From Deltaproteobacteria bacterium (GTDB lineage Bacteria > Myxococcota > UBA727 > VGSZ01): DNA of 64,000 bases. The notes under the pieces were generated by a model. That model was given only the letters and a program-made list of their open reading frames with translations, was not told where the DNA came from and did not search any database. The position numbers were made by a program, and so were the translations under genes. The stretch spans positions 30,374 to 94,373 of the forward strand of contig JACOUT010000005.1 in assembly GCA_016177705.1 (NCBI GenBank), given 5' to 3'. Shown here one piece after another: positions 2,209 to 60,522 of this stretch (within the stretch, counting starts at the first letter, position 1; every line of letters starts with the position of its first letter).

Positions 2209-2280
2209 GCGTCCCGCATAGCGCGCCGGCGTAGCGAGCCCAACCTGCTACCGTGTGGCAACCCTCTGGTGGAGGAGCTC

Positions 2281-4857
2281 ATGCGCCGGTTCGTGCTCGC
2301 GCTCGCCCTGGTTGTCCTCGTCGTGCCCGCCTGCTCGTGTGACACGCCGGCGTCGATCGACGACGCGGGCACTTCCGACGACGGAGGCGCGCGCGATGGG
2401 GGCGCGGACGCGGACGCGGGCGAGCAGCAGGATGGGGGCGGCGATCTCGACGCGGGAGCTGACGACGACGCGGGTGGCGGCGGGGAGGACGCTGGCCCCA
2501 CCGACGCGGGGCCGACCGCGCCCGTCATCGCGCAGTTCACGGCGACACCGTCGACGGTCGACCTGCAGGCGCCGACCTCCGTCACGTGGAGCTGGAGCTA
2601 CGCGACGCTGCCCTCGCCGACGCCGAGCTGCACCATCGATCAGGGCGTCGGCGCCGCCGCCAGTGGCGCCAGCACGCAGGTGACGCTGCTCGGCGACACG
2701 ACCTTCACGCTCACCTGCGCCAGCTCGGCGGGCAGTGACACGGCGACGGCGCAGGTCGGCACCGCGATCCGGTCATGGACGCAGGTGTCCGCTGGCTCCC
2801 TGCACGCGTGCGGCCTCAAGGGCGCGGGCGAGCTGTTCTGCTGGGGCGACAACGCGAACGGCGCGCTCGGCACCGGCACCTTCGACGACGGCATCTACCC
2901 GTTGCGGGTGGGGCTCGCCGCAGACTGGACCTCGATCGCCGCCGGCACCGGGCATAGCTGCGGCATCCGCGGCGGTGAGCTGTACTGCTGGGGCGCCAAC
3001 ACGCACGGCAAGCTCGGCGTCGGCATCGCCGTGGGCGTCCCCACCTGGGTGCCGCTGCGGGTTGGCGGCGACAGCGACTGGACCAGCGTCACGGCCGGTG
3101 AGAATCACACGTGCGGTATCAAGGGCGGTGGCGAGCTGTGGTGTTGGGGCATGAATTGGTTCGGGCAGCTCGGCGACAGCTCCATCGGCACGCAGGAGGA
3201 CAAGGACGTGCCGGTGCGTGCGGGCGGCGACAGCGACTGGACGAGCGTGGTCGCCAGTACCTGGCATACCTGCGGCACCAAGGGCACAGGCGAGCTGTAC
3301 TGCTGGGGCTTCAACAGTTTCGGCCAGATCGGCGACAACTCGACCAGCCACAAGAGCGTGCCCACGCAGGTCGGCGTCGACGCGGATTGGCGCGCCGCGG
3401 CGGCCGGCGGCGACATGAGCTGCGCTGTCAAGGGCGCGGGCGAGCTGTTCTGCTGGGGCACGGGCGAGCTCGGTGACGGCGCCACCTACCTCTCGCGCGT
3501 GCCACTACGCGTCGGCAGCGCGACGGACTGGAGCCGCGTGGCGGCCGCCCCGACGCACATCTGTGGCGTGAGGGGCGTAGGCGAGCTGTACTGCTGGGGC
3601 GGCAATAACTCCGGGCAGCTCGGCGACGACAGCGTCGCGCTCCGCCGCACGCCGACGCGCGTGGGCAGCCTCGACACATGGAGCCAGGTCGACGTCGGCT
3701 ACCAGCTTAGCTGCGGCATCCACGACGGTGAGCTCGACTGCTGGGGCAACAACGGCGAGGGACAACTCGGCCTCGACACGCCGGGCTACGCGACCGCCCC
3801 TGAGCGCGTCGGCGTCGACAGCGACTGGAGCGCGGTGGCCGCCGGTGCGCGCTTCACCTGCGGCGTGAAGAGCGGCGAGCTGTGGTGCTGGGGTGAAAAC
3901 GCGGCGGGTCAGCTCGGCTCGGGCGATCGCGTGCCACTCGCCGAGCCGGCGCGCGTTGGCGCCGCCAGCGATTGGGCGTCGGTGTCGGCAGGCGCGCTCA
4001 CGGCTTGCGCCGTCACCACGCAGCGCGAGCTGTGGTGTTGGGGCGACAACGGCTTCGGCCAGGGTGGCGTGGGCTCGCCGGGGCCGCTGCTCGTGCCGAC
4101 GCGCGTCGGCACCGACAGCGACTGGACCGCGGTGGGCGTCGGTCTGTGGGTGAGCTGCGGCGTCAAGGGCGTCGGCGAGCTGTACTGCTGGGGCAGCGCG
4201 AGCAACGGCGCGCTCGGTGACGGCACCGACGTGAACAAGCCCTCGCCCACGCGCATCGGCAGCGACGACGACTGGATCGAGGTCGTGGGTGGCGGGCACT
4301 GGTTCATGTGCGGGCGTCGCGCCGGCGGCGAGGCGTTCTGCTGGGGCAACGGCGCCTTCGGACAGGTCGGCGATGGCAGCACGCAGCAGCGCAACGTGCC
4401 GACGGCCCTCGACACCGCCAAGCTGTTCTCGTCGCTGGCGGCGGGGCAGGCGCACGCGTGCGGCACCACCACCGACGGCGAGCTGTACTGCTGGGGCGCG
4501 AACGCGGGCATCGGCGCGTCGGGCAACGCCATCCCTGCCCAGAGCCCCGTGCCGGTCGGCCTCGAGACCGACTGGGGCGTGCTCGGCGCCGGCTCCGGCT
4601 TCACCTGCGGCCTGCGTGGCCCCGGCGCGCTCTACTGCCGCGGCGCCAACGACTACGGTCAGCTCGGCACCGGCAGCCGCGATGCCGCGGTCTACGCCGT
4701 GCGCGTGGGGCTCGGCGACGATTGGCAGGACGTCGCCGCCGGCACGTTGCACGCGTGCGGCGTCCGCGCGGGCGCGCTCTTTTGTTGGGGCTCGGACGCC
4801 TCGGGTCAGCTCGGCGTTGGCCGCGGCTGGGTGCAGGTGCCGTCGCGCGTGTGGTGA
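2281..4857 (+). CDS. RCC1-repeat (beta-propeller) lipoprotein with Asp/Gly-rich N-terminal linker
   Basis: Internal ATG at 2281 gives signal peptide + lipobox 'LVVPACSC'; upstream 82 codons of the ORF are R/G-rich junk. At least 14 repeats of the 'GEL(Y/W)CWG.N..GQLG' RCC1 blade signature. Confidence 0.8.
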   Translation: MRRFVLALALVVLVVPACSCDTPASIDDAGTSDDGGARDGGADADAGEQQDGGGDLDAGADDDAGGGGEDAGPTDAGPTAPVIAQFTATPSTVDLQAPTSVTWSWSYATLPSPTPSCTIDQGVGAAASGASTQVTLLGDTTFTLTCASSAGSDTATAQVGTAIRSWTQVSAGSLHACGLKGAGELFCWGDNANGALGTGTFDDGIYPLRVGLAADWTSIAAGTGHSCGIRGGELYCWGANTHGKLGVGIAVGVPTWVPLRVGGDSDWTSVTAGENHTCGIKGGGELWCWGMNWFGQLGDSSIGTQEDKDVPVRAGGDSDWTSVVASTWHTCGTKGTGELYCWGFNSFGQIGDNSTSHKSVPTQVGVDADWRAAAAGGDMSCAVKGAGELFCWGTGELGDGATYLSRVPLRVGSATDWSRVAAAPTHICGVRGVGELYCWGGNNSGQLGDDSVALRRTPTRVGSLDTWSQVDVGYQLSCGIHDGELDCWGNNGEGQLGLDTPGYATAPERVGVDSDWSAVAAGARFTCGVKSGELWCWGENAAGQLGSGDRVPLAEPARVGAASDWASVSAGALTACAVTTQRELWCWGDNGFGQGGVGSPGPLLVPTRVGTDSDWTAVGVGLWVSCGVKGVGELYCWGSASNGALGDGTDVNKPSPTRIGSDDDWIEVVGGGHWFMCGRRAGGEAFCWGNGAFGQVGDGSTQQRNVPTALDTAKLFSSLAAGQAHACGTTTDGELYCWGANAGIGASGNAIPAQSPVPVGLETDWGVLGAGSGFTCGLRGPGALYCRGANDYGQLGTGSRDAAVYAVRVGLGDDWQDVAAGTLHACGVRAGALFCWGSDASGQLGVGRGWVQVPSRVW

Positions 4858-24859: not shown

Positions 24860-25591
24860 ATGAAGTGGTCGACGATCGCCGCGCTGATGTTCAAGCACCG
24901 CGTGGCCTTCCTGCTCGTGTGGGTGGTGTGTTGGGTCGGCTGCGATCAGGCGAGCAAGATCTGGGCGCAGGGCGCGCTCGCGGAGCAGCGCGAGGTGGTC
25001 AGGCCCAAGGAAGTGGTGGCGCCTGACGGCACCAGCACGCGCACCGAGGAGCGCGTCACCCAGTTCTTCGCCAAGCGCACCATCACGCTGCACGAAAACG
25101 GCCTGTTCGGCCTCGGCTTCAAGTACGCCGAGAACCGCGCCGCTGCCTTCTCGCTCACCGAGTCGATCCCCGAGGGCGCGCGCCGGCCGCTGTTGTTGCT
25201 CGTCAGCGTCGCGGCGTGTGCGCTGATCGCCGTGTGGTACCTGCGCCTCAAGGTGGTCGACGGGCTTCTGATGCTCTCGTTCGCGCTCATCATCGGCGGC
25301 GCGCTCGGCAACTTCTTCGACCGGCTGCGGCTCAGCTACGTCATCGACTTCCTCGACATGTACCTGACCGGGCCGGGCGCGGTCGCCTGGCTGCGCGCGC
25401 CGCACTCGCTGTTCGGCATCGGCTTCCGCCTGTCCGACCACTGGCCGACGTACAACGTCGCCGACGTCGGCATCGTGTCGGGCGCCATCGGGGTCTTGCT
25501 GCGCACCTTCAAGCCGCTGCCGGGCACCTCGACCGACAGCGCCGTCGAGCCGAGCCCGCCGGCGCCCGCACCCGCCAAAGAGGCCGCCTGA
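24860..25591 (+). CDS. lspA: lipoprotein signal peptidase (signal peptidase II)
   Basis: 'GGALGNFFDRLRLSYVIDFL', 'WPTYNVADVGI' LspA motifs; 4 TM segments. Confidence 0.85.
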   Translation: MKWSTIAALMFKHRVAFLLVWVVCWVGCDQASKIWAQGALAEQREVVRPKEVVAPDGTSTRTEERVTQFFAKRTITLHENGLFGLGFKYAENRAAAFSLTESIPEGARRPLLLLVSVAACALIAVWYLRLKVVDGLLMLSFALIIGGALGNFFDRLRLSYVIDFLDMYLTGPGAVAWLRAPHSLFGIGFRLSDHWPTYNVADVGIVSGAIGVLLRTFKPLPGTSTDSAVEPSPPAPAPAKEAA

Positions 25592-25875
25592 TGTACCTGG
25601 CGCGCGTCATCGGCACCGTGGTCGCCACCAAGAAGGCCGACCACATGACCGGCCTCAAGCTGTTGGTGGTCGAGCCCGTCGACCGGGCCAACAAGCCGAA
25701 CGGCGAGATTCATGTCGCGGTCGACGTGGCGCAGGCCGGCGAGGGTGACCTGGTCACCTGCGTCGGCTCGCGCGAGGCGGCGCTGGCCATCGAGCCCTCC
25801 TTCGTGCCGGTCGACGCCGCCATCGTCGGCATCGTCGACCAGACCGACTGGGTGGCCGACCGGGTGCGCGCATGA
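25591..25875 (+). CDS. bacterial microcompartment vertex protein BMC-P (EutN/CcmL/PduN family, PF03319)
   Basis: 94 aa 'MYLARVIGTVVATKK...LKLLVVEPV...VAVDVAQAGEGDLV'; SD 'aagagg'; start overlaps the lspA stop (TGATG). Confidence 0.85.
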   Translation: MYLARVIGTVVATKKADHMTGLKLLVVEPVDRANKPNGEIHVAVDVAQAGEGDLVTCVGSREAALAIEPSFVPVDAAIVGIVDQTDWVADRVRA

Positions 25876-26231
25876 TCCTGTGCGACGTGGTCGGCACGGT
25901 GGTGATGACCGTGAAGCACCCGGCGCTCGCCGGCGAGAAGGTGCTGTGCTGTCAGCCGCTCGACGACGCCAAGGAGCCGGCCGGCGCCGTCATCCTGGCC
26001 GTCGATCGCGCGCAGGCCGGCGTGGGCGACCGCGTGCTGGTGATGCGCGAGGGCAACGGCGTGCGCCAGATCATCGGCCGCGAGCAGGGCAAGCCGCTCG
26101 ACGAGGCCGTCAAGATGGATTGGCCGGTGCGCTCGATGGTGGTGGGTGTGGTCGACCGTGTCGATGTCGCGCCGCGCGGTGCTTCGGTCGGCGGTGCTTC
26201 GCTCGGTAGGGCGCGCGACGCCAAGGCGTGA
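25872..26231 (+). CDS. second BMC-P (EutN/CcmL family) paralog with ~25 aa C-terminal extension
   Basis: '[16 protein letters not shown]...KVLCCQPLD...[17 protein letters not shown]'; ATGA overlap with the preceding gene. Confidence 0.8.
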
Positions 26232-26235
26232 CGAC

Positions 26236-26901
26236 GTGAGCGAGCCGCACAAGCGCCTGCTTGCCGAGGTGTCGCGCCGCATGCACGCCGCCGGCTGGGT
26301 CGCCAACCACGACGGCAACGCCTCGGCGCGCCTGGCCGACGGCAAGCGCTTCCTGGCCACGCCCACGGCCGTCTCCAAGCGACTGGTCGACGCGCACGAG
26401 GTGCTCACCGTCGACGTCGAGGGCAAGGTGCTGTCCGGTCGGAAGCGCCTGTTCTCGGAGTGGCACCTGCACGCCGCCGCCTACCGCGCACGCCCCGACG
26501 CCGGTGCCGTGCTGCACGCGCACCCGCCGCACGCGACCGCCGTCGGCGTGGCGCGCAAGCAGCTCGGCGTGCCGGCGCTGCCCGAGATGGTGGTGAGCCT
26601 CGGCGCCAACGTGCCGACGCTCGACTTCGCGATGCCGAAGAGCGCGTCGCAGGACACCGCCATCGCGCGCGCGCTTTGCGAGGGTGACGCCGACGCGCTC
26701 CTGCTGGCCGGCAACGGCGTGCTGGTGGTCGGCGTCGACCTCGAGCAGGCGTACCTACGCCTGGAGCTGGTCGAGCACTACGCGCGCATCCTGGTGGCGG
26801 CCGCTGCCCTCGGCGGGCCAGCGCCGCTGCCGGCTGACGACGTCAAGAAGCTGCTCGAAGCGCGCACCAAGGCGGGGCTCGGCCGAGCGGCACGGCAGTA
26901 G
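26236..26901 (+). CDS. class II aldolase/adducin-family protein (fuculose/rhamnulose-phosphate aldolase-like)
   Basis: GTG 5 nt after the BMC-P stop; '[11 protein letters not shown]', '[10 protein letters not shown]' metal-binding His pair typical of class II aldolases. Confidence 0.8.
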
Positions 26902-26910: not shown

Positions 26911-28704
26911 TCACGGTGGCGAGCAGGAGCCGTCGATGCGGCAGAGGCCGCCGCCGCACTCGAGGTCCGAAGCGCACCGGTCGAGCACGGCGCCGAAGAT
27001 CTCGGACGCGCGCGCCGCGTCTTGTGCGCGCACCTCGAGCACCAGCCCGTCCCCGCGCACGCAGCCGCACTCGGTGCAGGCCGCCGGGTCGAGCGCGCCC
27101 TCGTGGTCGAGCGACACCGCCGCGAGCTGGTGGCTGGCGAGCGCCCAGGAGAGCACGCCGAGCAGCTCGTCGAGGGAGCCCGGCTCGCCCTGGTAGCCTG
27201 CCTCCTGCCAGGGGTTGGCGCACACGGTCGGCGCCACGCGGAACAGCACGCTGGTTGGGCAGGGCGCGTCGACCAGCATCTCGGTGGCGTTGCCGCACTC
27301 GTCGCGCAGGTCGCAGGAGAGGTGCACGTCGCCGTTGACCGGGTCGCCGGCGGTCGCTGTCTGCGCGCACTGCCGGCAGCTCGCCACCGCCGGCCCGTTG
27401 TCGAGCGTCAGCGACGTGCCGTTGACATCGGCGAGCGCGAAGGCACCGAGCACGGAGCAGCTCTCGCCGTTGCAGCTCGAGTAGATGGGGGCGCCGGTCG
27501 AGGGGTCGTAGCAGATCTCGCAGCCGGCCGTGCCGTCGGCGCCGGGCAGCGTCTCACACGAGGGCGGCGGCGCGCCGCCGCAGTCGCGGTACACCTCCAC
27601 GCCGGTACCGAGGTCGTAGCAGACCGTGCACCGCTGCGTTGGGTCGAGCAGCTCCTCGCACGCGAGCGTCGGCTCGCCGATGCACTGCGTCTCGACGTAG
27701 CCGTCATCGGCCGGGCAGCTCCGGCACAGGCTGCCGTCCTCGGCGTACTCGAACCAGCAGGGCTCGGCCGGCGCGCAAGCGTCGCCGGGAGCACAGTCGT
27801 TGCGCTCGCACGAGGTCGAGCTGACGCCGCCGTATTGGTCGAGGCAGACCACGCAGGTCTGGTCGGTGTAGGCGAGCACCTCGCACTGTTGCGGCGCTGG
27901 CACGTCGGGGCTGCAGCTTTGGTCGACCACGATGCCGTTGGCGTCGACGCAGGTGGTGCACCACAGGCCGTCGACGGTCACGCTCTCGACGCACGACACC
28001 GGCACGGTGGTGTCGGAGCAGCGGTGGCTCAACAGCACGTCGCCGCTCCAGCAGTCGACGCAGCGGCCGACGTCGTTGGCGTAGGCCTCGCACACCTCGG
28101 GATCGAGGCGGTCGTCGCCGGCGCCGGCGCAATCTTGCACCACCACCTCGTTGTCGCGCGTGCAAACCCGGCAGGTGGCGTCGCCGAGCACCTCGGCGTG
28201 GCACTCGTCGCTTGCAGGCTCGCAGCGGTTCTCCACCACCACGCCGCGCTCGTCGCGGCAGACCGCGCACGCCATGTCCGCCGACACCGGGTCGTTCGGG
28301 TCGACGGGCGCGGGCTCGCACGCGAGGTCGCCCTGCGCGCCCGGCACGAAGCAGTCGTCGAACAACACCTCGCCCAGGTCGGTGGCGCAGTAGCGGCACT
28401 GCTGGCCGTCGGCGTCGAAGCGCAGCTCGCACTCGGCGACGGTCGGCTCGCCGCAGATGGTCACGTCGCCGCCGGCGGTCTGGCACGAGGCGCAGGTCTC
28501 GCCCTCGTTGCGCTCGACCGCGGTGCCGTCGCAGCCCGGGCTGGTGACCGCGCATGAGCCGTCCGCGCACGGGTCGCGCTCGGGCCCGCCGTCCTCCTCG
28601 CCGACGCATTGGGGCAAGGTGGGGTCGAAGAAGCAGTCGCAGCCGAGCGCCGTCGCCGCGCCGAGCACGGCGAGCAGGGAGCGCAGGAGCGAGCCGGGCG
28701 CCAT
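26911..28704 (-). CDS. secreted lipoprotein built from ~10 Cys-rich ~22-aa repeats (CxxC-x2-D/N-x2-G-x(5,7)-C)
   Basis: Lipobox 'LGAATALGCDC'; repeats 'QCRYCATDLGEVLFDDC', 'ACAVCRDERGVVVENRC', 'TCRVCTRDNEVVVQDC', 'RCVDCWSGDVLLSHRC', 'WCTTCVDANGIVVDQSC', 'TCVVCLDQYGGVSSTSC', 'LCRSCPADDGYVETQC', 'RCTVCYDLGTGVEVYRDC', 'GCEICYDPSTGAPIYSSC'. Confidence 0.7.
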   Translation of the reverse strand: MAPGSLLRSLLAVLGAATALGCDCFFDPTLPQCVGEEDGGPERDPCADGSCAVTSPGCDGTAVERNEGETCASCQTAGGDVTICGEPTVAECELRFDADGQQCRYCATDLGEVLFDDCFVPGAQGDLACEPAPVDPNDPVSADMACAVCRDERGVVVENRCEPASDECHAEVLGDATCRVCTRDNEVVVQDCAGAGDDRLDPEVCEAYANDVGRCVDCWSGDVLLSHRCSDTTVPVSCVESVTVDGLWCTTCVDANGIVVDQSCSPDVPAPQQCEVLAYTDQTCVVCLDQYGGVSSTSCERNDCAPGDACAPAEPCWFEYAEDGSLCRSCPADDGYVETQCIGEPTLACEELLDPTQRCTVCYDLGTGVEVYRDCGGAPPPSCETLPGADGTAGCEICYDPSTGAPIYSSCNGESCSVLGAFALADVNGTSLTLDNGPAVASCRQCAQTATAGDPVNGDVHLSCDLRDECGNATEMLVDAPCPTSVLFRVAPTVCANPWQEAGYQGEPGSLDELLGVLSWALASHQLAAVSLDHEGALDPAACTECGCVRGDGLVLEVRAQDAARASEIFGAVLDRCASDLECGGGLCRIDGSCSPP

Positions 28705-28876
28705 GCCAGGGTTTTAGCACCCTCCGTGCCAGCGGGCCGGCTTGGTGCCGGCGCGTCGGGACGCCACGATCCGTCGTCCGACCGACCTTGGCGCGGCGGC
28801 TGCGAGGTCGATGCCGCAGGTCCGTGCGATCTCGTCGTCGCGGGGACAGTGGGCCACATGGTACGACAGCCTACAG

Positions 28877-29644
28877 ATGCTACCTCTCGTCGTGGCGCTG
28901 GTTGTGGCGCAGGTCGACGCCGGCCCTGCCGACGCTGGACCTGTCGACGCCGGACAGCCGCCAACGGTCTGCGGCACGCTCAGCGCCGAGGGCGCGTGCT
29001 TCGGCGAGGTCGCCGCCTGGTGCAGCGAGGACAACACGGGCGGCGCCGCCGCCGCCGCCGATGTGCACGTCGAGGACTGCGCGGGCGGCGCCTGCGCCGT
29101 GCTCGACGACGTCGGCGCTTGGTGCTTCGCCGCGGACGGCGCGCGCTGCGCGTTCGCCGCGGGGGCCGGCGCCACCGCGCACGCCTGCGGGCCGGTGCAG
29201 GCCGCGCCCGACCCTGCCTGGGGCTGCGACCTCGTCGACGGCTGCGTGCCGCTCGCGACCGCCGGCTGCGGCGCGGGCTGCGTCGATGCCGAGCGCGTGC
29301 GCCTGGCCTGTTCGCCCTTCGGGCAGCCGGTGATGTTTCGCTGCGCGGGCTTCGGCGGCGCCTGCGTCGGTGAGGGCTGTGTCGACCTTGGCGTCGGCGC
29401 GCCCTGCGACGAGCGCTTCACCTGCGCCGCGGGCCTCGCGTGCATCGTCGGGGCGTGCGTGGCGGACCTGCCGGGCGCGCTCGTCGACGCTGGGCCGGGT
29501 GAGCCGCCGGCACCACCGGCACCGCCTCCCCTGTGCGGCGCCGGCGCCGTCACCTGCCTTGGGCCCGCGGCGCTCTTGCTCGTCGCTGTTCGCCGAGGCA
29601 GCCGGCGCGCGCGCACGACGTCACCGCCCTATCGGTTGACCTGA
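28877..29644 (+). CDS. Cys-rich secreted protein with MYXO-CTERM-like C-terminal sorting tail (array member 1)
   Basis: ATG at 28877 'MLPLVVALVVAQVDAGPADAGPVDAG'; C-terminus 'PPPLCGAGAVTCLGPAALLLVAVRRGSRRA'. Confidence 0.65.
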   Translation: MLPLVVALVVAQVDAGPADAGPVDAGQPPTVCGTLSAEGACFGEVAAWCSEDNTGGAAAAADVHVEDCAGGACAVLDDVGAWCFAADGARCAFAAGAGATAHACGPVQAAPDPAWGCDLVDGCVPLATAGCGAGCVDAERVRLACSPFGQPVMFRCAGFGGACVGEGCVDLGVGAPCDERFTCAAGLACIVGACVADLPGALVDAGPGEPPAPPAPPPLCGAGAVTCLGPAALLLVAVRRGSRRARTTSPPYRLT

Positions 29645-29816
29645 CAGCAGGCCCTGACAAGAGCGTCGCATCGGCCGGGTGTCCGACCGAGCGCGGCGCC
29701 GCCGGCCTTGCGCTCGTCGACGTGTCGGGTACGGTGCCAGGCGTCCCGGACCAACCGGGATCATGCCGGCTCGACCGGCCAGGAACCCGGCCGAACGGCC
29801 CCCCAGGAGAGGTCAC

Positions 29817-30650
29817 ATGCGGAACGTGCTGCTTTGTTGTTCGTTGGCGTTGGTTGCGTCGGGCGCGGCGTTCGCGCAGGGCGAGGGAGAGGGCGAGGGC
29901 GAGGCCTGCGGCGCCGTCACGCTCGAGGGCGAGTGCCAGGGCACGGACGCCGTGTGGTGCCAGGACAATGTCCTGCAGCGCGTGACCTGCGCGGATCTGC
30001 TGGGTGATGGCAGCGTGGTCGGCAGCTGCGAGGTCTACACCGGCTTCGGTTCGTGGTGCGCCTTCAACGACGGCGACCCGTGCGCGTTCCAGACCCAGGA
30101 CGGCAACGCCATCTACTTCGCTTGCGCCAACGACAGCTCGGGCTGCGTCGACGGTCAGTGCACGGCCGGCACTGGCGCCTGCACGCCCGACGCGGATCCG
30201 CAGAACCCCACCGTGACCTGCCTCGACGGCGGCAACCTTCAAATCGGCTGCCAGCCCTGGGCGCAGGCGTTCGTCTACACCTGCGCGGGCATCAGCGCCG
30301 CCTCCACCTGCGCCAACGACGTGTGCGGCAACGTCGGCTCGGGCGATCCGTGCGCTGACGGCATCGCCGAGTGCGGCGGCGGCCTCTCCTGCGGCGCCGA
30401 CAACACCTGCGGTGGCGGCGGCGAGGGCGAGGGCGAGCCCGCCGAAGGCGAAGGCGAGGGCGACAACGGTGAGTGCGCCAGCGACCGCGACTGCGACGAA
30501 GGCGAGATCTGCGACAACGGCGAGTGCACCGGCGGTGGCGAGCAGCCCCCGGTGTGCAGCCACACGGCCACGAGCGCCGGTCTGCCGGCGGCGGGCCTGT
30601 TGGCGCTCGGCGGTCTGGTGATCGGCGTGCGCCGTCGCCGTCGCGCCTGA
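29817..30650 (+). CDS. Cys-rich secreted protein with short (GE)n tracts and MYXO-CTERM-like tail (array member 2, paralog of 28877..29644)
   Basis: SD 'ggagag' then ATG 29817: 'MRNVLLCCSLALVASGAAFAQGEGEGEGEACGAVTLEGECQGTDAVWCQDN' (compare 'CGTLSAEGACFGEVAAWCSEDN'). C-terminus 'PPVCSHTATSAGLPAAGLLALGGLVIGVRRRRRA'. Confidence 0.7.
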   Translation: MRNVLLCCSLALVASGAAFAQGEGEGEGEACGAVTLEGECQGTDAVWCQDNVLQRVTCADLLGDGSVVGSCEVYTGFGSWCAFNDGDPCAFQTQDGNAIYFACANDSSGCVDGQCTAGTGACTPDADPQNPTVTCLDGGNLQIGCQPWAQAFVYTCAGISAASTCANDVCGNVGSGDPCADGIAECGGGLSCGADNTCGGGGEGEGEPAEGEGEGDNGECASDRDCDEGEICDNGECTGGGEQPPVCSHTATSAGLPAAGLLALGGLVIGVRRRRRA

Positions 30651-30674
30651 TTGCTTCGCGCTCGCGCGAGTGAC

Positions 30675-30706
30675 AAAGGGGGCCGCGAGGCCCCCTTTGC
30701 TTTTTC
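30675..30706 (+). terminator. rho-independent terminator hairpin
   Basis: 'aaaGGGGGCCgcgaGGCCCCCtttgcttttt' 25 nt after the stop at 30650. Confidence 0.7.
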
Positions 30707-31233
30707 GCACCAGCGTCCTGCTCGCCGTCGCCGCCGCGCCCGTGCTGTTCGCCGTGCCGGCGCGCGCACAGGCCGACGCAGGTGTTCAGGACGCAGGTGT
30801 CGAGGATGCCGGCACGCCCGACAACCCCTGCGACCCCAGTTGCGACGGCGACACCCTGCGCTTCTGCGACGGCGAGACGCCCCGGGAGCTGCCGTGCGAC
30901 GCGCCGTTTGCGCGCTGCGATGAGCTGTCGGCCGCGTGGGGCGCCGACTGCCTGCTGCCCGAGGGCGCCGCGTGCGATCCCGGCTACGCCTTCGGCGAGT
31001 CGCGCTGCGACCGCGCCGCGTCGCTGTACTGCATCGAGGGCACCTGCCAGGTGGCGAGCGGTCCGGAGGTGCCTGGTCCGTTGTCGCCGAGCCCCGGCAC
31101 CAGCTCGACGTCCGGCACCAGCGCCACCAGCGACCCCTTCGGCTGCTCGTCGTGCGGCTCGGCGTCGGCGCTCGGGCTGCTCGGCTGCGGCGGCGCGCTG
31201 CGACGCCTGCGCCGACGTGCTCGGCGGACCTGA
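30697..31233 (+). CDS. Cys-rich secreted protein with MYXO-CTERM-like tail (array member 3)
   Basis: Probable TTG start at 30697 inside the terminator U-tract gives 'MLFRTSVLLAVAAAPVLFAVPARAQA'; the alternative GTG at 30670 would place the hairpin in the CDS. C-terminus 'GCSSCGSASALGLLGCGGALRRLRRRARRT'. Confidence 0.5.
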   Translation: MLFRTSVLLAVAAAPVLFAVPARAQADAGVQDAGVEDAGTPDNPCDPSCDGDTLRFCDGETPRELPCDAPFARCDELSAAWGADCLLPEGAACDPGYAFGESRCDRAASLYCIEGTCQVASGPEVPGPLSPSPGTSSTSGTSATSDPFGCSSCGSASALGLLGCGGALRRLRRRARRT

Positions 31234-31236
31234 CCA

Positions 31237-31938
31237 GTGCTCACGCCGCGCATCGGCCAGGACGAGGCGACGGACCTGTCGGATCCGAACCTCGCGAGCA
31301 TCCCTCCCGCGGTGCTGCACGGCGGCATCGCCGGCTCGTTTCGTGTCGCCATCGCGGGCGTGCTGCGCACCATCGCGGCGCAGCGCAACATGAAGATCCA
31401 CGTGCTGTCGGGTCTGATGGTGCTGATCGTCGGCATGACGTTGCCGCTCGGGCTCGAGGTGCGGGTGGCGCTGATCTTCGCCGTCGCCATCGTCTGGTTC
31501 GCCGAGATCCTGAACACCGCGCTCGAGGCGTTCGTCGACCTGCACATCCGCACGTACCACCGCCTCGCCATGATGGCGAAGGACGCGGCCGCGGCCGGCG
31601 TGCTCGTGCTCGCCAGCGCCACCGTCGTGGTGCTCTGCGAGATCCTCTACACCCAGTGGCACTTGGTGACCGACAACCTGCCGGCGGTGCAGCGCGCGGT
31701 GCTGTTCGGCGTCCCCTGTGTGGCGCTCGAGGCCGTTGGCTTGTTTGCCGTGCGACGCGGCGCGCTCGCCGTGGTGCGCTTGCTCGCGTCGCTCGGGTTG
31801 TTGGCGCCGCTCGTCGTGGCCACGCACGATCCGTTCTTCGCCGGCCTGGCGGTGGTGCTGGTGCTGGTGGCCGCCTACGCGCGTTGGTCGTTCCCCCTCA
31901 TGCCTCGCGCGGGCAGCGTGCGCATCGACGCCGCGTGA
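31237..31938 (+). CDS. dgkA: diacylglycerol kinase (DgkA/prokaryotic DAGK) family membrane protein with ~100 aa extra C-terminal TM extension
   Basis: 'AVAIVWFAEILNTALEAFVDL' matches the DgkA 'EILNSAIEAVVD' core; 3 + 3 predicted TM segments. Confidence 0.65.
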   Translation: MLTPRIGQDEATDLSDPNLASIPPAVLHGGIAGSFRVAIAGVLRTIAAQRNMKIHVLSGLMVLIVGMTLPLGLEVRVALIFAVAIVWFAEILNTALEAFVDLHIRTYHRLAMMAKDAAAAGVLVLASATVVVLCEILYTQWHLVTDNLPAVQRAVLFGVPCVALEAVGLFAVRRGALAVVRLLASLGLLAPLVVATHDPFFAGLAVVLVLVAAYARWSFPLMPRAGSVRIDAA

Positions 31939-32788
31939 GCGCGGGCAGCGCCGTCACCATCGACGTCGACGGCGTGCGCCACTACCACGCCATCCACGGC
32001 CTGCCGCCGCCGCGCGGCCCCGATCCGATCTGGCGCGCGGGCGTGCCGCGCGTGCTCGAGCTGTGTGCCGAGCACCGGGTGCGCGCGACGCTCTTCATCG
32101 TCACCGAGGACCTCGAGGACGAGACGGCGCGAGAGCTGGTACGGCGCGCGCACGTCGCCGGTCACGAGATCGCGAGCCACAGCCACCGTCACCGCTACGA
32201 GCTGAGCACGCTCGCGCCCGCCGAGATCGACGCCGAGCTGCGCCGCTCCATCGACGTCATCACCGCGGTGACGGGCGAGCCGCCGCGCGGCTTCCGTGCG
32301 CCCGGCTACACGTTGTCGGCGCCGCTCGTCGACGCGCTGGTGCGGCTCGGCTTCCGCTACGACTCGAGCGTGATGCAGGCGCCGGCCTATTGGGCGGCGC
32401 GCGCGGCCGCGCGCCTGGCGCTGCGCGCCCGCGGTCGCCGGAGCGCGTCGCTGCTCGGCGACCTCCGACAGTTCCTGCCCGGCTATGCCCCGCGCGGTCT
32501 CGTCGAGCTGCCGATCAGCAGCGCGCTCGGCTGGCCGTGGCTCGGCACCACGCTCGCGTTGCTGCCGGCGCCGCTCGGGGCCATGGAGACCGCCGTCGCG
32601 CGCGCGACCCCGCGGCGCGGGCCCGTGGTGCTCGAGTTGCACGCCGTCGACCTATGCGACGCCGGCGACGGCTTCGAGGGCGCGCTGGTGCAAGCGCAAC
32701 GTGATCTCGCCGTGCCGCTCGCGCGCAAGCGCGGACGCCTGGGCCAAGCGGTGGCGGCGCTCGCCAAAGACGCCCGCCCGCTCGCCGA

Positions 32789-32798
<10 letters not shown>
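31935..32798 (+). CDS. polysaccharide deacetylase (NodB homology domain, CE4)
   Basis: GTG overlapping the dgkA TGA; 'RATLFIVTED', 'HEIASHSHRHR' (H-S-x-x-H zinc motif), 'RGFRAPGY'. Confidence 0.8.
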
Positions 32799-35017
<2,219 letters not shown>

Positions 35018-54720: not shown

Positions 54721-54890
54721 AAGAGGCTATGGCTATCGTGTGCCGCGTGGCGCAGATCGGATGGCGCTGGCGGTCGATGTAGGACAGCGGCGCCACGCCG
54801 CCGATTGCCTCTTGGCGTCACCCCGCCGACGCGACGTATGATGCCGTTGGACCAACAGCCTCTCCACCCCGGACTCTCGTCGACAGCACC

Positions 54891-56861
54891 ATGGCCGCCT
54901 TCAAGCTGATCATCGAAGACGACGCCGGCAAGCAGATCATCGTGCCGTTCGCCAAGGACGTGATCACGATCGGTCGCAAGGAGGGCAATACCATCCGCCT
55001 GACCGAGCGGAACGTGTCGCGCAAGCATGCGCGGCTCTCCAAGGAGAACGGTCATGTCCTGGTAGAGGACCTGTCGAGCTACAACGGCATCCGGCTGAAC
55101 GGCGAGCGCATCACCGGGCGCGTGCAGGTCGCCGAGGGCGACACCATCCAGATCGGCGACTACCACCTCGCCATCCACGCGCAGGACGGGGCTGCCGCCA
55201 AGCCCGCAGGGTCCGGCGATCCGAACGAGACTGCGCAGATGCGCAGCGTGTCGGCGCCCACCACGATGGCGCCCGAGGATGACGAGTTTGCCGGCGATAC
55301 CCAGCGCTGGGAGGCTCCCGCCGACCTGTCCCCCGTGCCGGTCGGCTCGATGATGACGCAGGAGGAGCCCGCCATCCTGCCGACCGCCACGGCCGAGGAG
55401 ACCGTGCCGGGCCCGCATGCGGCTGGCGCCCCTACCGCCGACGGCAACCCGTTCCTCGGCGGCGGCGACACCGTGCGCGTGCCGTCGCCGTCGTCGCCGC
55501 TGTCGTCGCTCAACGCGGGCGCACCGTCGGCGATGCCCGCGCGCCGGCACGAGGTCGAGCTCGAGCCCACCGTGCGCCAGGTCGCGTCGCCCGCACCGGT
55601 CTCGGTGCCGGGCTCCGGCCATTTGGGAGAAGTCCCACGCCCGTCGTCCGCGCCGCCGGCAGCAGGCTCCGGCCCGAACCCGGCGCTCGCCGAGGACACC
55701 GCCACCGTGCGCGCGCCACCGGCGCCCGACGAGGACGTCGCCCAGCCGCGGCTGGTGGTGCTGAACACCATCTTCGCCGGCAGCGTGTTCCCGCTGCGCT
55801 CCACCGAGCAGGTGATCGGCCGCACCGACGAGAACGACATCACCGTCGAGCACCGCTCGGTGTCGCGCAACCACGCCAAGCTGGTGCGCGAGGGCGACCG
55901 CGTGCGCATCCTCGACCTGAAGAGCGCCAACGGCGTGCTGGTCAACGACGAGGAGGTCGAACAGCAGGTCTTGCAGTCAGGCGACGTCATCGAGCTCGGT
56001 CGCGTGCGATTGCGCTTCGTTCCGGTGGGCGAGCGCTTCGCCGTGCCGGCCGACGAGATCGAGCGCGCGCGCCTGGCGGACGCCGCGGGCGACGACTTCG
56101 AGAGCGACGCCAGCACCGGCATCACCAACCCGGTGCGGCCCAAGAAGAGCCTGCACTCGGACGCCGACCTGGTGCTACCGACGTCTGGCCTGGGCATGCG
56201 CAAGCTGCCGGTGCCGGTGTTGGCAGGCGCCGGGGTGCTTTTGCTGCTGCTCGTCGTCATCGTGGTGCTGTTGGCGCGCGGTGGCAGCGACGAGCAGCCG
56301 GCGGTGACGCCGCTGCCGCCCGGCGACCCACGCGTGGCGGTCATCGACAAGCCGGCCCCACCCACGCCGCCGGCCGACCCCGCGGCGACCGCGCCGACGC
56401 CGACGCCACCGGTCGCCGACCCCGCCGTGCCCGACCCGGTCGCCGCCGACCCCGCCGTGCCGGCGCCGGTCGGCGACCCAACGCCCGATCCCGCGCCGGA
56501 TCCGATCGACGCCACGCCCGATCCCGATCCCGGCGCGACGCGTCCGCCCGACCCGAACCGGGTGCGCAAGCCGCCCCCGGCCGAGCCGCGCATGTCCAAG
56601 GCGGACATCGAGAGCGCCATCACCGAGGCACGCAAGTTCTACGTGCAGGGCAAGCACGACAAGGCGATCGAGACCATCAAGCCGGTGACCAAGGCGGACA
56701 AGAACAACGCCACCGCGTGGAAGCTGCTCGGCATGGCCGCCCAGAAGCTCAACCGCTTGCAGACCATGTGCGGCGCCTACGGTGAGCTGCTGCGCCTGCA
56801 ACCGAGCGGGCCCGACGCCGAACAGGCACGCAGCAACCGCAAGACGGCGAACTGCAAATGA
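54891..56861 (+). CDS. FHA-domain inner-membrane protein, candidate T3SS SctD/YscD-like (2 FHA, TM helix, Pro-rich periplasmic part, TPR)
   Basis: Two FHA cores ('ITIGRKEGNTIRLTERNVSRKHARL', 'VIGRTDENDITVEHRSVSRNHAKL'), TM 'LPVPVLAGAGVLLLLLVVIVVLLA', Pro-rich repeats 'PAVPDPVAADPAVPAPVGDP'; 4-nt overlap with sctN. Confidence 0.65.
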   Translation: MAAFKLIIEDDAGKQIIVPFAKDVITIGRKEGNTIRLTERNVSRKHARLSKENGHVLVEDLSSYNGIRLNGERITGRVQVAEGDTIQIGDYHLAIHAQDGAAAKPAGSGDPNETAQMRSVSAPTTMAPEDDEFAGDTQRWEAPADLSPVPVGSMMTQEEPAILPTATAEETVPGPHAAGAPTADGNPFLGGGDTVRVPSPSSPLSSLNAGAPSAMPARRHEVELEPTVRQVASPAPVSVPGSGHLGEVPRPSSAPPAAGSGPNPALAEDTATVRAPPAPDEDVAQPRLVVLNTIFAGSVFPLRSTEQVIGRTDENDITVEHRSVSRNHAKLVREGDRVRILDLKSANGVLVNDEEVEQQVLQSGDVIELGRVRLRFVPVGERFAVPADEIERARLADAAGDDFESDASTGITNPVRPKKSLHSDADLVLPTSGLGMRKLPVPVLAGAGVLLLLLVVIVVLLARGGSDEQPAVTPLPPGDPRVAVIDKPAPPTPPADPAATAPTPTPPVADPAVPDPVAADPAVPAPVGDPTPDPAPDPIDATPDPDPGATRPPDPNRVRKPPPAEPRMSKADIESAITEARKFYVQGKHDKAIETIKPVTKADKNNATAWKLLGMAAQKLNRLQTMCGAYGELLRLQPSGPDAEQARSNRKTANCK

Positions 56862-58267
56862 TCTCGGCGAAACAGTCGCTCGAGGAGAACCTGGTTGGCG
56901 ACAAGCGGGGCGACCTGCCCGCCGGCAAGGTCATCGAGCTGCGCCGCGCCATCGAGGAGATCCGAGACGCCAAGCCGTACCGCGTGCGCGGCCGTGTCAC
57001 CGAGGTCACCGGCCTGATCATCAAGGCCGCGGTGCCGGGCGTGCGTATCGGCGAGATGTGTTACGTGACGTCGCCCAAAGAGGACACCGCACCGCTCAAG
57101 ACCGAGGTGGTCGGCTTCAAGGACGGCGCCGTCTTCTTGATGCCGCTCGGCGACGCCAAGAACGCCGGCCTTGGCCCCGACAGCGAGGTCATCCCCTCCG
57201 GCAAGCCCTTCCAGGTCAAGTGTGGCTTTGGCCTGCTTGGCCGCACGCTGTCGGGCATCGGCGAGCCCATCGACGGCCTCGGCCCGCTCGACGAGATCGA
57301 GGGCTTGCAGGACTGGGCGGTCGAGCGCGAGTGCCCCGATCCCTACACGCGCCAACCCGTCGACCGCGTCATCTCCTTCGGCGTGCGCGCGTGGGACGGC
57401 CTGCTTACCGTCGGGCGCGGCCAGCGCGTCGGCCTCTTCGCAGGCTCGGGCGTCGGTAAGTCGACCTTGATGGGGCAGATCGCGCGCCAGACCTCAGCCG
57501 AGGTGGTGGTCGTCTGCATGGTCGGCGAGCGCGGCCGCGAGGTGCTCGAGTTCATCCACGACTCGCTCGGCGAGGAGGGTCTCAAGCGCTCGGTGGTGGT
57601 GTGCGCCACGTCCGACCAGCCGAGCTTGGTACGCCTCAAGAGCACCTTCGTCGCCACCGCGGTCGCCGAGTGGTTCCGCGATCAGGGCAAGGACGTGCTG
57701 TTCATGATGGATAGCGCCACGCGCTTTGCGCGCGCGCAGCGCGAGATCGGCCTCGCCCTCGGTGAGCCACCGGCGCGCCAGGGATTCCCGCCCAGCGTGT
57801 TTGCGCTCATCCCCAAGCTGATGGAGCGCACCGGCAACAACCACATCGGCAGCATCACCGCCATGTACACCATCCTGGTGCAGGGCGGCGACATGGAGGA
57901 GCCCATCGCCGACGAGGTGCGCGGTATCCTCGACGGCCACGTCATCTTGAACCGCGACCTCGGCGCCCGAAACCACTGGCCCGCCATCGACGTGCTGCCC
58001 TCGCTGTCGCGCGTCATGAGCGGCATCGCCTCCGATGAGCATAAGAAGGCCGCAGGCATCATGCGGCGCACCATGGCGACCTACGAGAAGAACCGCGATC
58101 TGATCCTGCTCGGCGCCTACAGCTACGGCACCGATCCCAAGGTCGACTACGCCATCGACAAGATCGAGGAGGTCGAGACCTTCTTGAGGCAGGGCACCTA
58201 CGAGTCCTCGCCCTTCGAGGAGACGGTGCAGCGCATGGTCGACATGTTTGCCGACGCGCAGGAGTGA
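56858..58267 (+). CDS. sctN: type III secretion system ATPase (SctN/YscN/FliI family)
   Basis: Walker A 'GSGVGKSTL', 'VLFMMDSATRFARAQREIGLALGEPP', 'SITAMYTILVQGGD'. Confidence 0.9.
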   Translation: MISAKQSLEENLVGDKRGDLPAGKVIELRRAIEEIRDAKPYRVRGRVTEVTGLIIKAAVPGVRIGEMCYVTSPKEDTAPLKTEVVGFKDGAVFLMPLGDAKNAGLGPDSEVIPSGKPFQVKCGFGLLGRTLSGIGEPIDGLGPLDEIEGLQDWAVERECPDPYTRQPVDRVISFGVRAWDGLLTVGRGQRVGLFAGSGVGKSTLMGQIARQTSAEVVVVCMVGERGREVLEFIHDSLGEEGLKRSVVVCATSDQPSLVRLKSTFVATAVAEWFRDQGKDVLFMMDSATRFARAQREIGLALGEPPARQGFPPSVFALIPKLMERTGNNHIGSITAMYTILVQGGDMEEPIADEVRGILDGHVILNRDLGARNHWPAIDVLPSLSRVMSGIASDEHKKAAGIMRRTMATYEKNRDLILLGAYSYGTDPKVDYAIDKIEEVETFLRQGTYESSPFEETVQRMVDMFADAQE

Positions 58268-58650
58268 AGTGCTTCCACCACCCTGACGCGGACGCGGTGG
58301 GCCTGTGCAAAGCCTGCGGCAAGGGCCTGTGCCGGTCGTGCGCCGTCGACATGGGGCAGGGGCTCGCCTGCGCCAACTCCTGCGAGGTCGCGGTGCGCGA
58401 CCTCATCGTGCAGCTCGCCATCAGCAGGAAGGCGCTCGCGACGACGCCGGGCGCCTACAAGACGCAGTCGACCATCGGCTTCGTCACCGGCGGCATCTTC
58501 ATGGCCACCGCCGGGCTGGCGGCGCTCACGCCCGCGTGGTTCGTGGCGCCCCTGCTCGCCCTCTTCGGCTTGCCCATGATCTACCAGGGCGTGCGCGCGC
58601 GGCGGACCTATCGTTCGCTCGTCGCTGCGCACAAGGAACTACCTCCCTAG
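58264..58650 (+). CDS. small zinc-ribbon (B-box-like Cx2Cx5Cx2C) membrane protein embedded in the T3SS block
   Basis: 'MKCFHHPDADAVGLCKACGKGLCRSCAVDMGQGLACANSCE' then 2 TM helices; GTGA overlap with sctN. Confidence 0.5.
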   Translation: MKCFHHPDADAVGLCKACGKGLCRSCAVDMGQGLACANSCEVAVRDLIVQLAISRKALATTPGAYKTQSTIGFVTGGIFMATAGLAALTPAWFVAPLLALFGLPMIYQGVRARRTYRSLVAAHKELPP

Positions 58651-58667
58651 CTTGCTAGGATCGCCTC

Positions 58668-59180: not shown

Positions 59181-59182
59181 CC

Positions 59183-59455: not shown

Positions 59456-59540
59456 GCGCCCGCGAGAGACGCATCGCGTCAAGACCGATCGCGGCCGCCG
59501 TCCGATACTTCGACGGTCAACCGCTCTCTCGGGGTTCCCC

Positions 59541-60467: not shown

Positions 60468-60522
60468 GCACTGCCGCTGGCCCGGAAAGCTGCTAGAGCC
60501 GTTCGACCTGAACGGAGGCAGC

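Follow-up and report, generated by a model that had tools for sequence, protein, structure and literature searches.

The window, a 64-kb stretch of DNA, carries three consecutive plus-strand open reading frames for Cys-rich proteins with signal peptides, here called m1, m2, and m3, in the frames in which they had first been read. A GC3 frame plot backs coding for each of them (0.86–0.96 for m1 and m2, and 0.8–0.94 for m3), and their Cys contents are 7.9%, 9.7%, and 7.3%, respectively. Two further genes are packed behind m3. The start of dgkA lies 3 nt past the m3 stop codon, and the polysaccharide deacetylase gene overlaps dgkA by 4 nt. The features discussed below are as follows.

26911..28704, minus strand: gene for a 597-aa Cys-rich lipoprotein (lipobox ...ALGC), divergent from m1-m2-m3
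28811..29644, plus strand: m1, Cys-rich secreted protein, 277 aa from the probable start (255 aa from ATG 28877)
29534-29611, plus strand: m1 tail, CGAGAVTCLGPAALLLVAVRRGSRRA, then 10 more residues
29700..29816, plus strand: block upstream of m2, nearly invariant in alignments with L001, L003, and L004
29817..30650, plus strand: m2, Cys-rich secreted protein, 277 aa
30656..30669, plus strand: small hairpin hp1, TCGCG-CTCG-CGCGA, about -8 kcal/mol, 4 nt upstream of the terminator-type hairpin
30674..30699, plus strand: terminator-type hairpin, 11-bp stem, GNRA loop GCGA, -22.6 kcal/mol
30696..30706, plus strand: U-rich tract, TTTGCTTTTTC, which is also the m3 start codon and codons 2-3 (CTT TTT, Leu-Phe)
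30697..31233, plus strand: m3, Cys-rich secreted protein, 178 aa
31138-31230, plus strand: m3 tail, FGCSSCGSASALGLLGCGGALRRLRRRARRT
31237-31938, plus strand: dgkA, diacylglycerol kinase (Pfam PF01219, E = 6e-22)
31935-32798, plus strand: polysaccharide deacetylase gene (PF01522 in an identical Logan copy and in orthologs)

The window comes from a 'Deltaproteobacteria bacterium' MAG, and the related loci (given by L numbers) are from Myxococcales or Myxococcota MAGs, the lineage in which MYXO-CTERM proteins are expected. The m3-dgkA-deacetylase order is retained in L001, L005, and L021–L023, and in L003 through dgkA only, where the contig ends. The 597-aa lipoprotein gene is a conserved neighbor of the m2-like gene, and this holds for close relatives as well as for more distant loci. 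Its product matched no Pfam or NCBIfam model, and it has no significant similarity to m2 or to a 742-aa protein encoded downstream. The latter protein matches the MXAN_6577-like model (E = 8e-13) at 48.5 bits, below the curated cutoff of 100. As part of the explanation that we favor overall, the locus is probably a set of genes, conserved in Myxococcota, that encodes disulfide-rich proteins of the cell envelope.

Relationship and N-termini of the Cys-rich proteins

The three genes had been described as a tandem array of paralogs. This holds for m1 and m2, which share 31% identity over 170 aa (E = 7e-15), and not for m3, which is no close paralog of them. BLASTP shows the DAG repeats only, and it takes profile comparison to see that m3 is homologous to the N-terminal subdomain of m1/m2. 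On that evidence, m3 counts as a remote relative, with one domain, of this m1/m2 subdomain. m1 is a lineage-specific, recent duplicate of m2. In L004, m1 has been deleted, leaving a scar in which ATG has become ATA.

The m2 protein consists of a signal peptide (MRNVLLCCSLALVASGAAFA/Q), the (GE)n linkers noted in the initial annotation, a Cys-rich beta core in two parts, a single Cys repeat of the Myxo type, and a tail that is MYXO-CTERM-like and encoded at 30555-30647. The repeat (residues 219-237, GECASDRDCDEGEICDNGEC) resembles the myxobacterial Cys-rich repeats TIGR04201 (Myxo_Cys_RPT), NF041328 (MXAN_6577-like), and Pfam DUF7107, but unlike members of these families, it scores below threshold (15.5 bits against a cutoff of 25, and 14.6 against 24.6). 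In m3, a signal peptide (MLFRTSVLLAVAAAPVLFAVPARA/Q) and a (DAG)n linker precede one beta domain with 10 Cys residues, and a tail follows. No Pfam model, NCBIfam model, or solved fold matched the 10-Cys beta domains of m1, m2, or m3. The three proteins form a small, uncharacterized disulfide-rich family with no known fold, restricted to uncultured Myxococcota.

Sec signal peptides, judged by sequence and alignment alone, are found in all three families as a hydrophobic N-terminus followed by a conserved A-x-A/Q site (AFA/Q, ARA/Q, and VVA/Q). For m1, the charged n-region of the signal peptide requires a start at ATG 28811, and this is probably the correct start rather than ATG 28877, which had been assigned at first. 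L001 and L003 both keep the m1 frame, ATG 28811, and a preceding GAGG, and this ATG is picked by a gene caller, as seen in L010. Upstream of m2, the nearly invariant 29700..29816 block holds TTGCGC-N16-TACGGT, a leader, and the Shine-Dalgarno (SD) sequence GGAGAGG. From their sequence, we infer that the two hexamers may be promoter-like. The block has no Rfam match. A structured 5′ leader was considered and rejected, as the block is no stabler than shuffles (z = 0.87).

C-terminal tails

Proteins of the MYXO-CTERM type (TIGR03901/TIGR03382; prototype TraA of Myxococcus xanthus) have a defining tail architecture, are processed by a myxosortase (MrtX, MrtC, or MrtP), and are displayed through the T2SS (PMC11980579; 10.1101/2023.06.07.544157). 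The tail helix is without charged or Pro residues and is followed by an Arg-rich C-terminus (10.1101/2023.06.07.544157). Tails of this type had been proposed for all three proteins. The tails read as quoted in that proposal (m1 ...LLLVAVRRGSRRA..., m2 ...LVIGVRRRRRA, and m3 ...LRRLRRRARRT), and the layout of Cys motif, hydrophobic segment, and Arg cluster is present in m1, m2, m3, and their orthologs. Membership in the models was a different matter, with the m1 and m3 tails falling below threshold. In the TIGR03901 search that had been suggested as a check, m2 alone was matched, and marginally: the whole protein scored 18.9 bits, below the cutoff of 20, and its tail on its own scored 25 bits. 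Neither the m1 nor the m3 tail of the window gave an NCBIfam match. TIGR03901 was matched by 13 of 21 tails at E <= 1. With the sorting-signal models, m3 orthologs scored 10.8-11 bits, one m1 ortholog scored 13.3 bits, and one m3 ortholog just reached TIGR03382 (15.9 vs 15.85). Homologs are named MYXO-CTERM or TIGR03382 proteins by JGI.

The likeness to MYXO-CTERM proteins includes the signal peptide, the tripartite tail, Myxococcota origin, and, in the m2 family, tails that score at the cutoff. The Cys before the transmembrane segment is conserved as P-x-C-S/G in the m2 family and as L/W-C-G-A in m1, and m3 has a nearly invariant F-x-C-x-x-C motif before its hydrophobic segment. As is common, a second Cys lies near the first in TraA (FCCG), m3 (FGCSSCG), and m1 (CGAGAVTC). 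The m2 tail has a good hydrophobic helix (AAGLLALGGLVIGV). The other two tails, besides their scores, differ from the MYXO-CTERM type. The m1 segment (CLGPAALLLVAV) contains Pro, and 10 or more extra residues follow its Arg cluster. In m3, the Cys motif is a variant, and the segment (SASALGLLGCGGAL) is short, weakly hydrophobic, and Gly/Cys-rich.

A look for a cognate protease nearby had been suggested as a check. The 64 kb contain no gene for a CPBP-type myxosortase, exosortase, or rhombosortase. A Pfam scan of 36 ORFs in the window gave neither PF02517 nor T2SS components, and no other window protein was found with such a tail. Linkage between a myxosortase gene and the genes of its substrates is not the norm (10.1101/2023.06.07.544157), so the absence of one from the window says little. 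We propose that m2 and its duplicate m1 would be exported by Sec and probably held, then processed, via the MYXO-CTERM-type tail (Cys motif, transmembrane helix, and Arg cluster), and that m3, a relative that has a single such domain, carries a variant tail (F-x-C-x-x-C). For these proteins, lipidation, processing, and surface display are predictions. Points against this sorting route are the failure of the m1 and m3 tails in the HMM searches, the short, Gly-rich hydrophobic segment of m3, and the absence of myxosortase and T2SS genes from the window. The tails of this family widen the sequence range of MYXO-CTERM-like signals.

The hairpin between m2 and m3

A perfect hairpin with a U-tract had been reported between m2 and m3, and we find it as the stem-loop CAAAGGGGGCC-GCGA-GGCCCCCTTTG at 30674-30699, followed by CTTTTTCG. 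It begins 23 nt past the m2 stop codon, its stem is composed of 7 G-C pairs and 4 A-U/C-G pairs, and CTTTTT directly follows the stem. In geometry and stability, the structure matches an intrinsic terminator. On both strands of the 64 kb, this is the sole stem of at least 8 bp with a T-rich tail of comparable quality, and shuffles are expected to give 0 matches to the hairpin pattern. The palindrome occurs as a single copy in the window, and a REP-like repeat was therefore rejected. Rfam searches of the whole window at gathering thresholds, and of 28500-31500 at E <= 5, returned nothing relevant.

The U-tract is interrupted (UUUGCUUUUU) and is one of only two T5 runs on the plus strand of the window. 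Its codons are rare in window genes, where CTT accounts for 2.8% of Leu codons and TTT for 5.4% of Phe codons. The m3 N-terminal sequence M-[LF]-[FW]-R is kept in orthologs by third-position changes, with CTT TTT, CTT TTC, TTT TTC, CTG TTC, and CTT TGG as codons 2-3. The U-tract is under nucleotide-level selection and, in the clade of this locus, is kept against a strong codon bias.

All 19 of 19 related Myxococcota MAG loci have a strong hairpin and a U-rich tail between m2-like and m3-like genes. The m2-like genes end in ...RRRR-stop in every one, the hairpins range from -20 to -44 kcal/mol, and the stem sequences differ. When the full set of 13 hairpins was aligned with MAFFT, those of distant clades fell out of register, and the covariation count was therefore limited to the 9 in-register hairpins. 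Of the cells in this alignment, 91.8% were paired, and 5 of 14 pairs had changed on both sides; 0 of 500 shuffles did as well, and slid controls gave 41-66%. By the evidence of these compensatory changes, the hairpin is maintained by selection. T-runs of 4-8 lie behind the stem in most loci, and the U-tracts are weak in L017, L022, and the second of two tandem hairpin copies in L004 (CUGUUCC). The stretch from the m2 stop to the hairpin is unusually conserved in the clade. L001 has a compensatory version of hp1 (CTGGC-ACGC-GCCAG), and a small hairpin also fills the hp1 position in the distant loci L007 and L022. A metagenome scan for further m3 loci gave two loci only.

The start of m3 lies within this structure. 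The in-frame TTG 30697-30699 supplies the final 3 nt of the hairpin 3′ arm and pairs with C74-A76. The proposal that the hairpin's GAGG serves as the SD sequence stands up well, since GAGG 30687-30690 is 6 nt upstream of TTG and is conserved in every hairpin of the clade. It sits at the loop/stem junction, with 2 nt in the loop and 2 in the stem. The SD sequence and the initiation codon lie within a stable helix, as in a sequestering hairpin. TTG is the m3 start in 8 loci of the clade, with GAGG and TTG conserved in those 8. It is used by NCBI and by a second gene caller, and coding-type third-position variation starts exactly there. TTG is not the only start that yields a signal peptide, as had been claimed, because GTG 30670 also gives one in the window. 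As an m3 start, GTG 30670 was rejected since it does not share the m3 frame in L003, L005, and L020, and upstream ATGs in L004 were likewise rejected as out of frame. In L013 and L014, an ATG or GTG start is inside the hairpin loop. Nine of the 19 loci have the m3 start 12-120 nt past the U-tract (only 12-14 nt in L007 and L021), and overlap of start and hairpin is therefore dispensable.

Expression across the hairpin

We believe that the hairpin is probably an operon-internal attenuator that also occludes m3 initiation, with m2 expressed far above m3-dgkA-deacetylase. Most transcripts begun upstream of m2 would end in the U-tract, at ~30700-30708, and a minority would read through and carry m3-dgkA-deacetylase. 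In the clade, the same hairpin also holds the m3 SD sequence (GAGG) and the weak TTG start, so that read-through mRNA would be poorly initiated as well. The net outcome would be much more m2 than m3 and the products of the genes packed behind it. We infer termination, partial read-through, and translational occlusion from the sequence of the element. The earlier suggestion that the hairpin sets differential expression is plausible and fits its universal position between m2-like and m3-like genes. Several points speak against attenuation. An 11-bp stem of -22.6 kcal/mol over the SD sequence and start codon, with TTG as that codon, should leave m3 nearly silent, yet m3, dgkA, and the deacetylase gene are conserved and presumably needed. 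Furthermore, the start/hairpin overlap is not universal, and the U-tract is interrupted here and weak in L004 hairpin 2 and L022.

Attenuating intrinsic terminators within operons are known to follow highly expressed structural genes. Examples are the terminator between genes VIII and III of f1/M13, T-phi behind gene 10 of T7, the E. coli rplL-rpoB attenuator, and the hairpins that follow papA and fimA, which encode major pilins. The m2-m3 element resembles these in having a GC-rich hairpin and U-tract right past a stop codon, before related same-strand genes, and in the expected excess of upstream over downstream product. Unlike in those systems, the 3′ arm and U-tract here are the next gene's start codon and codons 2-3, the loop/stem junction is its SD sequence, rare codons build the U-tract, and termination is a prediction. 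Initiation regions also lie in stable hairpins in translational operators, RNA thermometers, and riboswitch platforms that join a terminator to an SD-sequestering helix. As in these, the m3 SD sequence and start are in a stable helix, and 30S binding should depend on its opening. Unlike in those regions, the element has no evident alternative pairing (anti-terminator or anti-sequestor), ligand domain, or Rfam match, and a stem of -22.6 kcal/mol is far too stable for an RNA thermometer. A literature search for precedents of terminator/start-codon overlap found nothing specific. A terminator hairpin with a start codon is a tidy variant of known regulation and not a new principle.

It is unlikely, in our view, that the hairpin is instead an efficient full terminator of m1-m2 and that m3-dgkA-deacetylase is a separate unit, with a promoter overlapping the m2 3′ end. 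Transcription would then start inside or just past the hairpin, giving a leaderless mRNA or a very short leader, and the hairpin would never form on m3 mRNA. This would remove the paradox of genes that are silenced yet conserved. It would also fit the unusual conservation between the m2 stop and the hairpin, and the loop starts of L014 and L013, from which a transcript would be leaderless and without the 5′ arm. However, no sigma-70-like promoter was found in a scan of 26-36 kb, although that scan neither supports nor excludes an internal m3 promoter. UUG initiates poorly at a leaderless 5′ end, and the conservation of GAGG at SD distance in the clade speaks for a start that has a leader and depends on the SD sequence. 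The SD and ATG of L007 and L021 lie 12-14 nt past the U-tract, so the mRNA 5′ end must lie upstream and no promoter fits downstream of the hairpin. This spacing, and the tight packing of m3, dgkA, and the deacetylase gene (3 nt apart or overlapping), favor read-through over a separate promoter.

A mainly post-transcriptional role is also improbable, to a similar degree. The hairpin would then be a 3′-to-5′ exonuclease barrier or processing site with little termination, stabilizing the m2 segment of a polycistronic mRNA, and differential expression would come from segmental mRNA decay. The intercistronic hairpins of the puf, mal, and pap operons are precedents for such barriers. The great stability of the hairpins in all loci, the conserved hp1 just upstream, and the weak U-tracts of L004 hairpin 2, L017, and L022 are in keeping with this role. 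A pure barrier needs no U-tract, however, and the tract is kept against codon bias, with its T-runs in most loci.

More speculatively, and rather doubtful, the hairpin, instead of attenuating passively, could be a regulated two-level switch opened by an antiterminator, RNA helicase, or RNA-binding protein, possibly with hp1, and the m3 F-x-C-x-x-C tail could represent a separate subclass of sorting signal, processed by rules of its own. Transcriptional read-through into m3-dgkA-deacetylase and translation of these genes would be turned on at the same time, which would tie a minor surface protein and envelope-lipid/glycan enzymes to envelope state. That nothing here is functional, the hairpin being a chance palindrome or REP-like element and GTG 30670 the true m3 start, is highly improbable: the GTG does yield a plausible signal peptide in the window and the tandem copies in L004 are what a mobile palindrome might show, but the window has a single copy with 0 expected by chance, its position is conserved in 19 loci with compensatory changes, the GTG and the L004 ATGs are out of frame as described above, and third-position coding variation begins at TTG.

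If attenuation with start occlusion holds, one 33-nt element would do three jobs, namely end the upstream transcript, hide the next gene's ribosome binding site, and encode the first signal-peptide residues, with rare codons recruited for the U-tract. Such an element could serve as a design motif for stoichiometry tuning. It may also help in predicting gene starts and operons of GC-rich genomes, in which a TTG start within a hairpin is easily mis-called. The series of loci, with the m3 start well downstream of the hairpin, then in its loop, and then in its stem, illustrates how an intergenic region may be compacted without loss of the terminator.

Gene Array and Start Codons

The window has a G+C content of 71%, and in a frame plot of the + strand third-position G+C rises to 0.8–0.96 in precisely the frames of m1, m2 and m3, three consecutive genes for Cys-rich secreted proteins. 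These ORFs are thus real coding regions. The m2 product is identical to NCBI protein HYS27_09995 (from a MAG labeled "Deltaproteobacteria bacterium") and that of m3 to HYS27_10000. Related loci, denoted here by L numbers, come without exception from Myxococcales or Myxococcota MAGs. The features of the array are as follows.

28811–29644, + strand: m1, likelier start ATG 28811
29817–30650, + strand: m2, with the Shine-Dalgarno (SD) sequence GGAGAGG upstream
30656–30669, + strand: hp1, a small hairpin (TCGCG-CTCG-CGCGA) 4 nt before the terminator hairpin
30674–30699, + strand: terminator-type hairpin, CAAAGGGGGCC-GCGA-GGCCCCCTTTG then CTTTTTCG
30697–31233, + strand: m3, start TTG 30697

The initial annotation began m1 at ATG 28877, from which the signal peptide would lack an n-region. 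We consider ATG 28811 the more likely start, since its preceding GAGG and the open frame 28811–28877 are kept without indels in L001 and L003, and since a gene caller chose it on an identical Logan contig. In L004, m1 has been deleted, and at 1905–2010 a scar remains in which the m1 start region, its ATG now ATA, runs into the 3′ flank of the gene. m1 is thus a dispensable, lineage-specific copy.

The block at 29700–29816, covering the ~115–130 nt before the m2 ATG, is almost invariant in the window, L001, L003 and L004, with conservation far above that of the coding regions. Within it lie a promoter-like TTGCGC-N16-TACGGT and a hairpin, TCCCGG-ACCAA-CCGGGA. The block matches no Rfam family, and its fold is no better than those of shuffled sequences. 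On the - strand, a sigma-54-type promoter match (TGGCACGGAGGGTGCT, 28716–28731) is the sole one in the window with at most one mismatch. In L001, L003 and L004 the -24 and -12 elements are unchanged and the spacer varies. The match ends ~12 nt before ATG 28704 of a divergent gene for a 597-aa Cys-rich lipoprotein, and a transcript from it would be nearly leaderless, without an SD.

Terminator-Type Hairpin Between m2 and m3

A hairpin with a U-tract had been reported between m2 and m3, and our analysis confirmed it as the sole such structure in the window. The hairpin has a free energy of -22.6 kcal/mol. No other hairpin on the window's two strands combines 8 bp or more of stem with a T-rich tail of such quality. 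The pattern is unexpected by chance, and the T5 run after this stem is one of two on the window's + strand. No Rfam family matches it.

We compared 19 distinct loci (the window, L001, L003–L007, L011 and L013–L023). The same order was found in 19/19: an m2-like gene ending in RRRR-stop, a strong hairpin, a U-rich tail and an m3-like gene. Free energies range from -20 to -44 kcal/mol, and the stem sequences vary by locus, including GGGGGCC, GGGAGCC, GGGGACCC, GGGCCGC and ACGGAGCC, among others. Covariation was counted in the 9 hairpins whose MAFFT alignment was in register, where 91.8% of cells are paired and 5 of 14 pairs show changes on both sides; 0 of 500 shuffles match these values, and slid registers are 41–66% paired. 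The smaller hp1 has a compensatory version in L001 (CTGGC/GCCAG versus TCGCG/CGCGA in the window), and distant loci also carry a small hairpin at its position. In L004, the terminator hairpin between m2 and m3 is present twice, in tandem.

The m3 Start and Proposed Attenuation

The window's clade comprises the window, L001, L011, L003, L005, L004, L019 and L020. Throughout this clade, the 3′ arm ends in TTG, always in the m3 frame, and coding-type variation starts precisely there. The GAGG located 6 nt upstream, at the loop/stem junction, is likewise invariant. The earlier proposal that m3 starts at this TTG, with the hairpin's GAGG as SD, therefore holds across the clade, and both NCBI and a second gene caller place the start at TTG 30697. 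GTG 30670 was rejected as the start because it does not share the m3 frame in L003, L005 and L020, and in L004 the upstream ATGs are likewise out of frame.

Codons 2–3 read CTT TTT, CTT TTC, TTT TTC, CTG TTC or CTT TGG, and the peptide is always M-[LF]-[FW]-R. Since CTT makes up 2.8% of Leu codons and TTT 5.4% of Phe codons in the window, yet both are used here, the U-tract is maintained against codon bias and serves a double function. Elsewhere the arrangement differs. In L014 the start is an ATG within a hairpin loop; the stem has 14 bp, and R-V-P-F-V-F is encoded by its 3′ arm and the U-tract. In L013 the start is a GTG within a long hairpin loop. In L006, L007, L015–L018 and L021–L023, m3 starts 12–120 nt past the U-tract with its own SD.

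Behind m3, dgkA and a polysaccharide deacetylase gene follow, with the three genes 3 nt apart or overlapping and kept together in several lineages. In L007 and L021, m3 starts only 12–14 nt after the U-tract, which leaves no room for a promoter downstream of the hairpin. The tight packing and this lack of room argue that m3 is reached by transcriptional read-through from upstream, and they make an operon-internal attenuator the most economical reading of the hairpin. The majority of transcripts would stop after m2, and m3, dgkA and the deacetylase gene would be carried on read-through transcripts. In the window's clade, read-through output would be limited further by occlusion of the SD and start and by the weak TTG. 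The difficulty is that a helix so stable should leave conserved genes nearly silent, and this keeps two rivals alive: transcription may start inside the hairpin itself, or the hairpin may act mainly as an mRNA-decay barrier. The components are each known already: tails of the MYXO-CTERM type, terminators that lie inside operons behind abundant structural genes, and helices that sequester an SD. Unlike in known systems, they are here fused in one element with dual-coded rare codons, conserved across a gene family without an assigned function.

Encoded Proteins, Putative Sorting Tails and Neighboring Genes

In all three proteins the N-terminus is hydrophobic, ends in A-x-A|Q and leads into a low-complexity acidic linker. 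The linker is (DAG)n in m1 and m3; in m2 it is (GE)n, and the (GE) tracts noted previously are indeed present. Cys-rich regions follow the linker, and Cys contents are 7.9, 9.7 and 7.3% for m1, m2 and m3, respectively. In the m3 orthologs of L006, L007, L015 and L018, the linker corresponding to window 30769–30820 is (DAG)n or (GE)n at the same position, so linkers are swapped between otherwise orthologous proteins.

The initial annotation regarded all three genes as paralogs. This fits m1 and m2, which are paralogs sharing 31% identity (E = 7e-15); BLASTP of m3 against either finds nothing beyond DAG repeats. Profile-profile comparison relates the m3 family to the m1/m2 family at 93% probability. 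With signal peptides and linkers removed, the m3 core aligns to the m2 N-terminal subdomain at 91% probability (E = 1e-6) with Cys in register, and m3 is thus a remote, single-domain relative. Confident AlphaFold2 models predict all-beta cores for both (pLDDT about 90 for m3 residues 41–125 and 70–90 for m2). No Pfam or NCBIfam family covers the Cys-rich domains of m1, m2 or m3. The families are small: a word-seeded search across 5.8 billion proteins gave 16 clusters for one and 25 for the other.

MYXO-CTERM joins a signature motif, whose Cys is invariant, to a transmembrane helix and a cytoplasmic end rich in Arg, and is cleaved by myxosortase, a CPBP protease (PMC11980579; 10.1101/2023.06.07.544157). 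The Cys/hydrophobic/Arg layout attributed to the three tails is present in m1, m2, m3 and their orthologs, and in no other protein of the window. Against TIGR03901 (curated cutoff, 20 bits), m2 is borderline, at 18.9 bits for the full-length protein and 25 bits for the tail alone; among homologs of m2, some are named MYXO-CTERM or TIGR03382 proteins by JGI. Neither the m1 nor the m3 tail of the window matches a sorting-signal model. Orthologous m3 tails score ~11 bits, with one barely making TIGR03382 (15.9 versus 15.85), and one m1 ortholog tail scores 13.3 bits. In m3 the tail is conserved in a form of its own, F-x-C-x-x-C-G, then a short Gly-rich hydrophobic stretch, then L-R-R-x-R-R. A search for a cognate sorting protease nearby had been suggested, and neither a CPBP protease nor a T2SS component was found among the 36 window ORFs scanned; this is indecisive, because the genes for myxosortases usually lie away from those for their substrates (10.1101/2023.06.07.544157).

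Several neighboring loci were also observed. Genes for signal peptidase II (LspA), two EutN/CcmL-type microcompartment vertex proteins and a class II aldolase (24860–26901) look like a satellite bacterial-microcompartment locus, which adjoins the array in L001, L003 and L010 too. A 742-aa protein (32789–35017) has roughly 35 (GE) repeats following its N-terminus; its Cys-rich region is MXAN_6577-like (E = 8e-13, under the model cutoff), and it lacks a C-terminal sorting tail. Unrelated to the array, a ~940-aa ORF of RCC1-like repeats lies at 2029–4857 (Pfam RCC1-like domain, E = 1e-112). At 54783–63090, a type III secretion cluster encodes FHA/YscD-like, EscN-type ATPase, YscO-like and FliM/FliN (SctQ)-like proteins; a gene for a TerC-family membrane protein lies within the cluster.
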